In this document: positions 9,856 through 56,300 of the stretch, one piece after another
Layout: the number at the start of each line of letters is the position of its first letter
Numbering within the stretch: position 1 is the first letter of the stretch
Assembly: GCA_023231475.1 (NCBI GenBank)
Contig: JALJEE010002055.1
Coordinates: forward strand, 1-64,000
Length of the DNA: 64,000 bases
Source: Seison nebaliae
Taxonomy: Eukaryota
Reading direction: 5' to 3'
Made by a program: the position numbers and the translations under genes
The notes under the pieces: model-generated
Databases searched by the model: none
What the model saw: only the letters and a program-made list of their open reading frames with translations
What the model was told of the DNA's origin: nothing

Positions 9856-12611
9856 ATGTCAAAATATTTGGATAATGCCGCGAGAAAATCGGACGGCTAT
9901 GAAGAATTGGCGAATGATGAACATATTTTCGAACGAGACACAGATGGATGGGGATTGACAGCATTCGTTCCTAATTCGACTTTTCTCCAATCCAATTCCA
10001 TTCCCCGAGTAAGTCGCTACAAAGGAAAGACGAAGAGTGGGAAAGTGAATTCGGAAGTACAAGATGTCGGTTTGAAAGTGAAACGACAAACTTTGGGAGA
10101 GACAGACACGTACCGACTACAACATTCATCGAAATATCAGGCAGCATCAATTCGAAGAATAACAGGAGGTATGACATCTGATCCCGTCATTTACAAAGAC
10201 GAAGTCCAACAATGTGAAGATGAATTAGAAACGAAACGATTAGACCATCATTATCGATTACATAAACATGAGTCGAGATTATTGAGATTTTATCCTTATG
10301 GATTTCGGAGTGAAGCGAAGAAAATTTCGGTTCTCGCACTTCCCATCGTTATTAGTTGCATCGATTCTTTGTCTATTCAGATTCATCTGTTTCCAGGTAT
10401 TGGCACATATTCTCCAGAAAATGATTCCATTGTGTAGTTCGATATTTGCGGGACATTTAGGCAAACATGAATTAGATGCCGTCGCTTTAGCTGTATCAGT
10501 TACTTATCATTCATTAATTTTTTAATTTCAAATTTTCAGTTTACGAACGTAGCAATCTTGTCGATAGGAGAAGGTCTAGCGACCGCTTGTGACACGTTAT
10601 TTTCTCAAACTTACGGTGCCGGTAATAAGAAAGGTGTGGGAATCATATTACAACGAGCACTCATAATTCTGATGTTGGCCTGCTTCCCATGTTCTGCCTT
10701 ATTGTTGAACACGGAACATTTGTTAGTTCTATTGAAACAAGACGCGGAAGTGGCCAGGTTAAAAATAAATTTTCCATGAAATTTCCATTTCCATCATCGT
10801 CACATTTAGATTGGCGGGCATTTTCTGTCAAATCTGCATACCTGGTGTTGTGGTTATTGTTTGAAATGGTTTCTTCTTTCTTTAATTGTTCGGGCAGTTT
10901 AGTTTCATCTATACAATTCTTGTGAAATATGTCCAAAATCAAGTTTGAATTTTTTCAATCTTTTTATTTTATTTTCCTCCAATAGAATGTCGTCCGACCA
11001 TTACTTTATAACGCTATGATTGCTAATGTATTAAATATTGGTTATCATTTCTTCTTTGTCACTTATCTCCAATGGAGTGTTGGGTTAGATGAATTTATGA
11101 TTTGAATTTAATGATTAATCTCATTTAAATTTTCATTAATTAAAGTGGATGTGCCATAGCGGTCGATTGTGCTTTTTTCACTTTATTCTTCCTCTCAATC
11201 GTCTATATCAAATGGAGTAAAATGTATCAAGCCACTTGGAGTGGTATATCAATCGGTGCCCTCCAAAATTGGTCGTCATTCCTCTGGTTAGCTATACCGG
11301 GAATTTTCATGATATGCTGCGAATGGTGGTACATGGAATTATGTGATTTTATCACAGGTTTCTCTCTCGTCGTCGACGATTTTTTCGAATTATTTTTTCA
11401 ATTTCAATCCTAGGAACGATCGGTGTAGTCGAATTGGGCACTCAATCGACATTAGTCGAATTATTCGATTTATGTTATCAAGTTCCTTTTGGTTTCGCTA
11501 TCGCTTCATCGATTCGAATTGGAAATTATCTGGGAAGGAACAAACCATTAGGCGCCGCTACCGTTTCACGAATGGCATACACTTTAGCCGTTTTTTGGAG
11601 TTTGGGATTGTTTACTGTCATCATATCGTGTCGTCATTATCTCCCCAGAATTTTTACGAGTGATCGGTTCAATTTGAAATTTTCCGTTTTTTCCAATAAA
11701 TTTCCGTTTTCAGAGATATCGTCGCATTAAGTTCCAAAGTTCTAACATTCGCTTCGATTCAAGTCGTCGTCGATACTTTCTCAGTTATCTTTGAATTATT
11801 TTCATTCATTCTAACAAATTTAATTTTCAGGCAGTTTCTTCTGGAACTTTACGTGGCACCGGTAAACAGGCCGTTGGTGCCATCGTTAATTTTATCGGTT
11901 ATTACGTAATTGGTTTACCGGTCGGTTTATCTTTATTATTAAAGACGTCTTTAGTATTGAATGGTTATTAATGATAATAATGATGATGATGATTTGAGAA
12001 ATCGAATAATTTTAAATTTAACAGGTCTTTGGATTGGAATTCTTTGTGCGACTTCAACTCAAATTATCGTTTTCATTCCGTTTATTTTGAAAATAAATTG
12101 GGAAAATGAAGCGGAGAAAGCGCAAGAACGTGCGGGAATTTTTGAAAGAGAAGAAATGGAAACGAGTCAGGAAATAGAGACATTCGGAGAACGATTTCAA
12201 TGGGTACAGAAAGCTCAATCGAATGAGGATACGTTCAATTCGAATGATGAGAAGAGAAATGAATCAATGAAAAATTATTATTCAATCACCACAACCGATT
12301 CAGTCGAATTGAGTATCGAAGAACATTCGGAGAAACAACCACTACTTAATGATCGTGTGATAAGAGTAAATGAGAAATGGAGAATTATTCGACAGAAACT
12401 TTTTGTTCTTTTCATCTTCATCATGATAACGGTGGGCGGAGTGATTCTTCGAATGAAATTAACTTATGATATCGATTGGTACGAATTATGTCTTGTGTCA
12501 GAGAATGTGACGGATTATAGGAAATTCGGTAAAAGATCAATGATGCTTCCTTTACATTATGCTAATGATTCCATCCACTTCAAGTTTTGCAACGAATCAA
12601 TGTTGGTATGA
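9856..12611 (+). CDS. MATE family (SLC47-like) multidrug/toxin extrusion transporter, 11 exons
   Basis: Motifs FAGHLGKHELDAVALA, GLATACDTLFSQTYGA, LAIPGIFMICCEWW, ASSIRIGNYLG, SGTLRGTGKQ and GLWIG, plus an extra C-terminal TM. Introns: 10348-10396, 10499-10539, 10758-10809, 10853-10897, 10943-10985, 11084-11145, 11358-11413, 11667-11713, 11784-11830, 11964-12024. All are GTT..AG and keep the frame. Confidence 0.95.
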
Positions 12612-53318: not shown

Positions 53319-56300
53319 TCAGACGTCTTCGGCTTCCGAAATTTCTAGTGGTGGCGGACTAGTTTCTGGAGTTGTCATTCTTCGAATGCGCTAAAAATAA
53401 ATGAATGAAAGAATTTGAATGAATATTAGATAAGCCGAACGTCGAAAAATGTTCCGGGAGTTGTCACGAATTGAAAGATCATGTAAAGTGGAATTGGGAC
53501 TAATGTACAGAAGATGATGATCCATCGTAGTCGTTGTATCCAGTCGGGATAGACGTAACTGTTTAGTACTAATGGCGAGAGTGTAATATAATAGATGATT
53601 GTAATGAAGACGATCTGAAATTGGGAATTAAAATTATTTGAAAGAGAGAGAAAAAGAGAGAGTGGGAGGAACTAGAAGGAAGAATGGAGCGATGATTGCC
53701 CAAGTGACCCGCCAGAATCGTCCCGGTCTAAATCCGAGCATCGATTTGACATCGTCGCTAAATCGATTAGTTCCTTCAAATAAAATATGTTAAAATTTAA
53801 AAAATGGAGATAAAAGAGAAACCGTAAATCCAATTGAGAGCGACCGTTTCGCAGAATGCGATCAGGAGAATGGCGGGAGCGATGGCATATTCGTTCAACA
53901 TATGAATCAAATAGTTTCCGCCCTAAAACGACCAAAATGTGACATGGCACAAATGAGATTGAAAAAATTAGAAAATCATGCACTAACGTACGTACAAGTG
54001 GATAAGGAAACACAGTAGGCGAACATCATCACTCCCAATACGAATAATTCGCGTCGTTTCGCCAAAAACGCACTTTGATCACAGAGACCGGTGAGAACGG
54101 ATTCAAAACCGCCAAACTAATAATAATGAATATAAACGGTATAATGAGAGAGTTAACTGTACTGTCCACACCTAATGTGATGACCATGAGAAAGAAGACG
54201 AGAGACCAGAAAGTCGAGCCATTCATGAGAGCTATGGCTTGAGGATAAGCGACGTATACAAGTTCCGGGCCCTGTTTCGTCACATTCTCCACATTCGTCT
54301 CCTTCACATACGCCATATGGCCCAGTACGGAGAAGACGACGAATCCCGCTATTATACTCGTCAGACAATTGATGATGCTACAAGCTATGGCGTCTCTAAA
54401 CGAATCGTTTGAATTGATTGATACGAACGATGAGAGGAAAAGGAGAACTTGTAACAATTGTTATTTCGTTTATTGTAACTGGAAAGTGCGAGTAACGTCC
54501 CAAAACCAGGTCCTAACGAAAAGAAGACTTGTGCAGCCGCATCTTGCCATACCTGAAACAGATTAAAAATTAAAAATTAATTATATTTATTAATGAAAAA
54601 AAGAGAGAAAATGAACGGCAAAATCTTTCAATTTTGCCCATTTCGGATTCAAATAGAAAAGAATTCCTTGTGTGGAACCTTTCAAGGTGACACCTCGAAT
54701 GAGTAGAATGAAAAGGATGACGTACGGGGCCAACGCGGTGAACCAGACGACTTTACCCGAACTCTTCACACCTTTCCATAAGGCGAAATAGACGATCGTA
54801 TAAACGAGGAGAAGACACAACGCCGTCTCCCATTTGACACCGCCCAAATTGTTAATTCCGTCAGCTTTATTAATTTCCAATATTTTATTTCTAAGAAATT
54901 TGAAGTGAAGTGAAGGAAATGAATATGAAAGTGAAAGAGAAACAGGAAATATTGTTCGGTTGGTGTGTGAATCGTTTCGCAGAGAATTGTCCCGTTTCCT
55001 CGGAAGAGTGTACCGTTATGAATGATGTTGGTGGTATTGGTGGTGGAATTCATATTGTCGGGCCATTTCACATAATCAGTGATGTTCGTACTCCAATAAT
55101 ATTCATTTCTTATTTGATCATTCGTCAGATTTTTCGATGAGATCTTTCCATAATTCTTCGTATCGTCGATGGTTAGACAACAGTGATTATTCCAGGGATT
55201 GTGACAGCCCTTCCATGGGACTTCTCGACGAAACGAATCGAAAAAATAATAGACGGCCCAAGAGATCATCGTATTGTAGAACATGGCCATGAATGTGTTC
55301 ATAATGACAATTCCAAAAGCGACACCTAATAATACCGTTTGATCAGGGAAAAAGATGGAAATGAAATTGGATGATATGGAAACCTTTCATCATCGGACAG
55401 ATGCGAGACCAAACGGTAAACACTCCCGTCTGTTGGAATTGACCCAACGCCAATTCCATATAGAACAATGGGAGACCGGCAAATATAAAGAAAACGAAAT
55501 ATGGAATGAAGAATGCACCTAAAAATAATGATGGAGATAGAGAGATTGAAAGAGAGAAATATAAACCACCGCCATTGCGATAGCAGATATATGGAAAGCG
55601 CCATACATTACCCAGATCGACGGCGAAGCCGATGACGGCCAAGAGGAATTCGATTTTCTTATCCCAAACTTCTCGATGTGCAGGGCTCGTTTCCGTCGTC
55701 TTATCCACGATCACATTCTCCATATTGTCCAATTCTTTCTCATCCTTCGATTTGTCGTCGTTATCTCTGGTGGGCGAGAGTGCCATGAACGTGTCTGTTG
55801 TCTTCATTGGAATGAATTGTCTGCAGACATTATTCAAATGTTGGCGACCCGTTGAACACGCATGATTTATCCAAGGGACATTATTCCGGAATTTAGCTGA
55901 TGTGGTCCGAAACAGAATTTTCGCTTTCGTCTTATGTGAGTTGTTGGGCTGGGACGAGTCGGACGTTTGTGTCGTGTTATTCTCTGGCGGTTTAGTAATG
56001 GCGAGCGAATGAGTCCCAATGAGAGAGGAAGGGGAAGTGATGGTGGTTCGTGTGGAAGAGGAAGAAGAAGAAATAGATGATAATTTTAAGATTTTTGATT
56101 TATTTTTCTTCTCGACGGGGGCGGCGGCGGCGGTAGTGGTTATATTGGTGGGCGTTATGGAATTAGATGTTCTTATGATATTTTTCCATAATGAAAAATT
56201 GGAAGTGGAGGATTGGTGCAAATCAACCGTGCTCGTTGTAGCGTCAAATTGTTGGATGTTATCTCCTTTCAGTTTGGCAATGATACTGTCTGACGAGATT

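Follow-up and report, generated by a model that had tools for sequence, protein, structure and literature searches.

Can the third base of nearly every donor site be switched in an animal, given that few features of animal splicing are as conserved as the purine at position +3 and the 5′ end of U1 small nuclear RNA (snRNA)? The question is raised by one 64-kb window (64,000 nt, the whole stretch analysed; contig JALJEE010002055.1) from the tiny marine animal Seison nebaliae, which according to the accessible text of PMC8351084 is a seisonid rotifer that lives on Nebalia and has lost about one third of the metazoan BUSCO genes. A sequence-only reading of the window had claimed that every reconstructable intron starts with GTT and none with GTA, GTG or GTC, that +3U has become obligatory in the lineage, and that U1 or another part of the spliceosome should have changed to match, or donors be selected without U1. 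All Seison donor counts below stem from introns within this window.

GTT donors in the window

Three NCBI gene models were used as database models, namely MATE (SNEBB_003706), calpain (SNEBB_003709) and SERT (SNEBB_003714). They were reached through exon searches: one SERT exon had SNEBB_003714 as its best match, and exons of calpain and MATE led to the other two. The three proteins aligned to the window with zero mismatches, and back-mapping them without a splice prior left a single GT/GC-AG solution at every junction. By this mapping 30 of the 32 introns have a GTT donor (SERT 10/10, MATE 10/10, calpain 10/12), and the ten MATE donors are those that had been read from the sequence before. 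Both introns that break the rule are in the calpain model, with GTA at 36805 and GTC at 36693. Intron 4 of MATE has tandem in-frame donors at 10847-10859 (GTT-GTG-GTT-ATT-GTT), and two NCBI isoforms take the GTT at 10853 and the GTT at 10859; no isoform is annotated for the GTG at 10850, which is also in frame. Isoforms only 6 bases apart suggest that RNA hints lie behind the NCBI models. The Seison genome annotation is reportedly described by Hagemann et al. in Hydrobiologia (2024).

A profile-to-DNA spliced aligner with no term for +3 was run with foreign homologues on SERT, MATE, calpain and a domain called FAM78-like after the name given in the sequence-only reading. It called 28 introns, 27 with GTT and one with GTA, and the foreign-homologue profile of MATE recovered the identical ten introns. 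When the +3 odds of other animals were supplied as a prior, the calls were unaltered (still 27 GTT of 28), and a doubled animal GTA/GTG prior yielded 25 of 28. At 26 junctions, frame-keeping GT/GC-AG alternatives up to 45 nt away were scored on profiles excluding Seison, and GTT came top at 25 of them; the remaining one is a 0.1-bit tie that lies outside the domain. Non-GTT alternatives were available at 24 junctions and were 3.8-32.3 bits worse at 23.

The combined set holds 46 introns, all with GTT (46/46): 27 are pinned by homology and 19 were placed via frame and composition (18 from a neutral gene finder, one from the NCBI calpain model). These 19 were partly chosen, since three further calls of the neutral gene finder in the same genes were omitted from the set: GTC at 18417 (257 nt), GTG at 32584 (743 nt) and GTT at 47755 (167 nt). 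GTT makes up 36.3% of the GT trinucleotides in the window, so the probability of 27/27 by chance is 1.3e-12 against this background; with the T content of intron interiors (49%) as background it is 5e-9. The 95% lower bound of the GTT share is 87% from 27/27 and 79% from 30/32. The first neutral ab initio gene finder gave 35/47 GTT, with errors mostly in the hydrophobic MATE gene. A retrained version gave 44/49 with a neutral and 38/49 with an animal prior, but it was trained on intron interiors of the 46-intron set and is partly circular, so it was kept out of the main evidence.

Junctions were placed by sequence and homology. Four read sets searched over 39000-47400 yielded no spliced joint, only contigs resembling DNA or no contig at all, which has no bearing on expression. 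The GTT donor rule of the window is confirmed for nearly all introns; “nearly every” is safer than “every” because of the two non-GTT donors in the calpain model. The earlier claim of an obligatory +3U is supported as fixed or nearly fixed in the window, and may not extend to the whole genome, given one 64-kb window with lower bounds of 79-87% and two non-GTT donors.

Ancestral positions and a changed third base

A six-SERT-protein alignment was used to collect a control set, the best 80 of 127 SLC6 loci on metagenome contigs, and the aligner used for Seison detected introns in 70 of these 80, with 298 calls of which 241 were distinct. The 241 donors are GTA 161, GTG 47, GTT 20, GTC 11 and GC 2, counts that are not independent, since the SLC6 loci are related to each other. 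All ten Seison SERT intron positions recur in control SLC6 genes of other eukaryotes, where the 77 donors are GTA 61, GTG 14 and GTT 2. With 75/77 GTA or GTG, the earlier statement that +3U departs from the usual animal state holds. In AT-rich control loci with short introns, 83/92 donors are GTA, and the GTT rule is therefore not a matter of base composition.

In a FastTree tree of 65 rows, from which ten near-duplicates and products shorter than 270 aa were excluded, the Seison SERT, the acanthocephalan Neoechinorhynchus and eight control loci form one group (SH-like support 99). The eight loci, hereafter sister loci, are probably from other rotifers. Their 72 donors are GTA 63, GTG 3, GTT 5 and GTC 1, and at the six positions common with Seison 34 of 37 are GTA. 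Because the SERT positions are common with SLC6 genes using GTA and GTG, we conclude that ancestral introns were rewritten at +3 in place and not replaced; the third base of old introns changed on the Seison line. An origin of the introns from introners or other mobile elements was rejected, since the positions are ancestral and intron-intron matches, among the first 20 listed, are 12-17 nt long and AT-rich.

Two side observations concern the control set. Locus L072 has GTT at three of five called donors, in a partial alignment where this may be noise. Eleven tree rows (L006-L025) form a long-branched clade of monoamine-transporter-like genes on AT-rich contigs that retains one or two introns only, at profile positions 39.1 and 71.1.

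Anatomy of introns and donors

The 46 introns are 41-117 nt long (median 53), with an interior of T 49%, A 29%, C 15% and G 6%. They appear to be U2-type by their ends, with GT-AG in 46/46 and reading frames and homology restored on removal. Acceptors are TAG 24, CAG 18 and AAG 4 (YAG 42/46), and no branch point with a fixed motif or distance was found in the 46 introns. Measured against an RTATCCTT donor and a CCTTAAC branch point (consensus as given in the accessible part of PMC3033335), U12-type introns were rejected, as the sequence-only reading had done, because no donor has +3A and there is no fixed branch motif.

Nor do the donors follow GTRAG, which pairs with the 5′ end of normal U1, with a +3 purine in 0/46, +4A in 19/46 and +5G in 9/46. 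Position +4 is A19 C9 G4 T14; position +5 is A17 C10 G9 T10 and departs from interior composition (p = 7.5e-5); position +6 is T in 26/46, equal to the interior level; and the last exon base (-1) is A19 G16 C8 T3. There are 26 distinct donor hexamers among the 46 introns, and GTTTGT is absent (0/46). Positions +4, +5 and +6 carry 0.05-0.4 bits in Seison and 0.6-0.7 bits each in the sister loci, so donor information has been shifted from +4 to +6 onto +3. A weak -1G and a +5 purine persist as a remnant of the normal register, and no compensation between -1G and +5G was detectable at n = 46. Within the last 30 nt of exons, 13/65 GT sites are GTT, and long exons have 232/717; this test is borderline and uncorrected (p = 0.05) and hints weakly that decoys are selected against.

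Genes and introns in the window

The genes that supplied the introns are given below; coordinates after the gene name are intron starts or intron spans.

9856..12611, plus strand: MATE/SLC47 transporter, SNEBB_003706 (exact NCBI protein map, P0055 and P0325; Pfam MatE); ten GTT donors at 10348, 10499, 10758, 10853 (alternative 10859), 10943, 11084, 11358, 11667, 11784 and 11964
13889..18251, minus strand: calsyntenin-like gene (Pfam CLSTN_C and cadherin); three GTT introns at 17958-17911, 17739-17685 and 17515-17465 (neutral gene finder, without homology pin)
32500..34894, minus strand: gene named FAM78 in the sequence-only reading (no Pfam match, name unconfirmed); GTT introns at 33675-33608 (gene finder), 33321-33270 and 33155-33074 (both from a profile of 31 homologues)
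36375..37000, minus strand: unconserved tail of the NCBI calpain model (exact map of P0032); introns at 36922 (GTT), 36805 (GTA), 36693 (GTC), 36603 (GTT) and 36471 (GTT)
39390..41598, minus strand: calpain, SNEBB_003709 (NCBI model; five introns pinned by foreign homologues); six GTT introns at 41484, 41013, 40637, 40229, 39871 and 39710
42308..43440, minus strand: cyclin gene (Pfam Cyclin_N and Cyclin_C; PDB cyclin A/E matches); four GTT introns at 43021, 42891, 42582 and 42409 or 42394 (gene finder)
44449..48148, plus strand: large gene earlier named CFAP92-like (no Pfam match); six GTT introns at 44582, 44699, 45121, 45536, 47402 and 47747 (frame and composition alone)
48421..49524, plus strand: gene with a ubiquitin-like domain (Pfam ubiquitin); three GTT introns at 48488, 48705 and 49362 (gene finder)
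49806..52733, minus strand: gene earlier named CCDC66-like (no Pfam match); two GTT introns at 50051 and 49894 (frame and composition alone)
53319..56662, minus strand: SERT/SLC6A4, SNEBB_003714 (exact NCBI protein map, homologue profile); ten GTT introns at 55566, 55383, 54943, 54616, 54448, 54157, 53987, 53822, 53672 and 53440

The five calpain core introns and both introns of the FAM78-like domain, the latter pinned by homologues, turned out to be GTT as had been read, and calpain gained a sixth, 5′ intron at 41484, also GTT. The 201-nt intron at 47747-47947 follows the rule as well (GTT..AG, frame kept).

The calpain tail is linked to the rest of the NCBI model via a 2440-nt GTT intron. 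Its GTA (36805) and GTC (36693) introns flank a 17-nt exon, and the intron starting with GTA contains 40% A and 31% T, compared with 49% T in other introns; the two sites may be genuine donors of a minority type or the product of a forced parse. The tail at 36375-37000 (minus strand) is a cluster of short introns that may belong to a gene of its own or to untranslated exons of the downstream gene.

The second extracellular loop of SERT (55180-54945, minus strand) exceeds that of other animals by about 50 residues and holds many N-x-T/S motifs. A 93-nt in-frame GTA “intron” called in the SERT loop (55091) was rejected: the NCBI model has exon there, and the call was taken for a shortcut of the alignment over the loop insertion. 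Low-depth contigs about 82-88% alike (runs X1 and X2) cover 43083-43224, 46005-46197 and 46367-46482, exons alone, and are consistent with the second Seison lineage described in the accessible text of PMC8351084.

Among the intron-dense genes stand long reading frames with no or almost no introns, at 5251-8559 (plus), 57947-61561 (minus) and 62092-63922 (plus). They include an M13 peptidase (Pfam) and a 1204-aa protein without a Pfam match that is in the NCBI set, and the third bears cysteines and has a Gln/Pro-rich repeat that extends to the window end. A 5S rRNA fragment at 9174-9257 (plus) has a 3′ half near consensus and lacks about 36 nt of the 5′ part; its score of 32.8 bits is below the gathering threshold of 38, and it is probably a pseudogene copy.

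How the third base may be read

The Seison donor is essentially three letters, GUU, on short U-rich GT-AG introns at ancestral positions. Normal U1 presents a uridine at +3, so it gives no ground for a +3U preference. The preference is strict for U (GTC 0/46), which suggests that U is recognised by an A or by a pocket in a protein, since the G of normal U6 would accept C just as readily, if not more so. Our best reading is that the donors are read by an ordinary U2-type spliceosome whose U1 snRNA is predicted to have an A opposite +3, a proposal that we hold to be evenly balanced between right and wrong. Specificity would come mainly from intron definition over the U-rich, G-poor intron, with TIA-1/Nam8-type factors as possible helpers, and three Watson-Crick pairs with the altered U1 would set the cut site. 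After the split from the lineages of the GTA-using sister loci, a variant U1 may have arisen alongside the normal one; donors of the AT-rich genome would meanwhile have drifted towards GTT, with loss or sidelining of the normal U1 as the last step. The broader claim, that in an intron-rich animal almost all ancestral donors changed their third base from purine to U, leaving GUU as the code and a compensating A in U1, in the first animal with a co-evolved U1, has slightly less than half of our confidence.

With an A opposite +3, the mean pairing of the U1 5′ end rises from 5.22 to 6.22 Watson-Crick pairs, and the sister loci have 6.29 with normal U1. Several points weigh against a compensated U1. 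The gain of one pair is inherent in the hypothesis; the evidence base is one window with sequence-derived junctions; and the calpain model has its GTA and GTC donors. In agreement with the sequence-only reading, no spliceosomal snRNA was found in the 64-kb window by Rfam searches (gathering and E-value thresholds) or short motif scans. The U1 pairing would also be short, because +4 to +6 are unconstrained, unlike in Entamoeba. Lineages with shifted donors mostly retain a normal U1 (yeasts, Giardia, Trichomonas, Thecamonas and Mamiellales, in the accessible part of 10.1101/2022.06.08.495308), as does the tunicate Fritillaria borealis, 95% of whose introns are non-GT/AG (accessible part of PMC13326754).

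These uncompensated cases are also what makes a second explanation worth weighing, namely that U1 is normal and +3U is read by an altered protein (U1C, LUC7, TIA-1/Nam8, PRP8, SNRNP27K or DIM1) or an RNA modification; on introns this short, U1 pairing would be weak or bypassed. An uncompensated U1 is the commoner result of donor shifts in what is accessible of 10.1101/2022.06.08.495308; F. borealis has altered U2AF paralogues and snRNA m6A and not altered snRNA sequence (PMC13326754, in part); and loss of SNRP-27 in C. elegans alters the +3 preference (PMC11732430, in part). The loss of about one third of metazoan BUSCO genes in Seison (PMC8351084, in part) is likewise in its favour, and the low information at +4 to +6 suggests little dependence on a long RNA duplex. 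The uncompensated cases, however, involve +4 or non-GT ends and are explained by U6, and none has a fixed +3U. We consider this explanation unlikely while still giving it real weight.

U1 is the first to contact position +3, and U6 G44 follows, making only weak contact with A or G (PMC11732430, in part); +1 and +2 are checked again at exon ligation (10.1101/212811, in part). A third explanation is a change in U6, in which the ACAGAGA residue opposite +3 (G44 in human) was replaced by A, or in which the normal G wobbles with U as a checked pair at donor transfer. The weak pairing of A and G at this place speaks for it, as does the better match of GUUUGU to the normal U6 ACAGA pointed out by Roy and Bowser (10.1101/2022.06.08.495308, in part). 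But the positions opposite the remaining box bases, +4 to +6, have almost no constraint (+5G 9/46, +6T at the interior level), a normal G would favour GTC, which is seen in 0/46, and the normal box is kept in Entamoeba (10.1101/2022.06.08.495308, in part) and in F. borealis (PMC13326754, in part). We find a U6 change improbable.

Still more improbable, in our view, is that GTT is no more than the commonest donor class, or an effect of this locality or of the annotation, caused by AT bias, a self-trained gene finder or mobile-element introns. The two non-GTT calpain donors, the 35/47 of the first neutral gene finder, the 3/5 GTT at L072 and the use of a single window would fit it. Annotation-free alignment, however, gives the same 27 sites, with non-GTT alternatives 3.8-32.3 bits worse at 23 of 24; equally AT-rich short-intron controls are 83/92 GTA; and the positions are ancestral, with intron-intron matches of only 12-17 nt, AT-rich, among the first 20 listed.

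A pairing of normal U1 displaced by one base (GT-TAAGT type), of the kind found at rare human sites, is very improbable and already largely refuted: +4A is found in 19/46 and such registers are known (PMC13326754, in part), but the expected +6G (3/46) and +7T (17/46) do not exceed intron background, mean pairing drops to 4.63, and the leftover G at +5 is that of the normal register.

Comparison with known systems

Seison appears to be the first animal case of near-fixed GTT donors. The literature consulted held no report of +3U donors for Seison or any animal, in a coverage that leaves out most subscription journals, so that absence is no proof. Donors are untreated in the accessible parts of PMC8351084 and PMC10125929, supplements included, and PMC10639083 has S. 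nebaliae in its supplementary species list and not in the main text. Spliced aligners that prefer GTR, such as minimap2 and miniprot, are biased the wrong way for this genome, and public Seison genome and transcriptome data exist to settle the question, which would reveal which part of the spliceosome reads +3.

With the standard animal U2-type donor (GTRAG), as seen in the sister loci, Seison shares GT-AG ends, YAG acceptors, a weak -1G and +5G, common positions and typical introns of 44-72 nt with a median of 53 in both. The sister loci differ in having +3A in 63/72 and an informative +4A, +5R and +6T, whereas Seison has +3T in 46/46 and is almost free at +4 to +6.

Lineages with +4U and a normal U1 (Saccharomycotina, Giardia, Trichomonas) are tied to loss of METTL16 and SNRNP27K in the accessible text of PMC11732430. 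They too have one donor position shifted, genome-wide in their case and in one window for Seison. Their shift concerns +4 and U6 m6A in intron-poor genomes, whereas in Seison it is at +3, with +4U unfavoured (14/46). F. borealis, as far as PMC13326754 is accessible, is likewise an animal with changed splice signals that a U2-type spliceosome handles, there across the whole genome; its terminal dinucleotides are relaxed and its U1 and U6 sequences conserved, whereas Seison keeps strict GT-AG and adds specificity at +3.

The nearest precedent, and in the literature consulted the only published lineage with a near-fixed +3U, is Entamoeba, which the sequence-only reading had missed; the interpretation of that reading is partly supported. 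In the accessible part of 10.1101/2022.06.08.495308, Entamoeba donors are GUUUGU in 87.9-89.5% and GUUUGN in 96.9-98.5% of introns, U1 is ACAAAC in all five species, and Mastigamoeba has another compensated U1. This makes a U1 mechanism in Seison more plausible and the phenomenon less than categorically new. In the same source Roy and Bowser find transformed donors concentrated in intron-poor lineages and discuss a model whereby intron loss has to precede the co-evolution of introns and machinery. Seison, with ten introns each in MATE and SERT, is not intron-poor in this window, so its dense ancestral introns, with +3 switched at each one tested, would offer a direct test of that model and, if U1 proves to have co-evolved, a counter-example to co-evolution requiring prior massive intron loss. 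Both systems have GT-AG spliceosomal introns with a near-fixed +3U in place of the ancestral purine. Entamoeba is intron-poor and has the whole hexamer fixed (GUUUGU), whereas Seison, known here from its donors, has up to ten introns per gene at ancestral positions and +3 alone fixed, so it seems to resemble the Entamoeba system at +3 without being a member of it.

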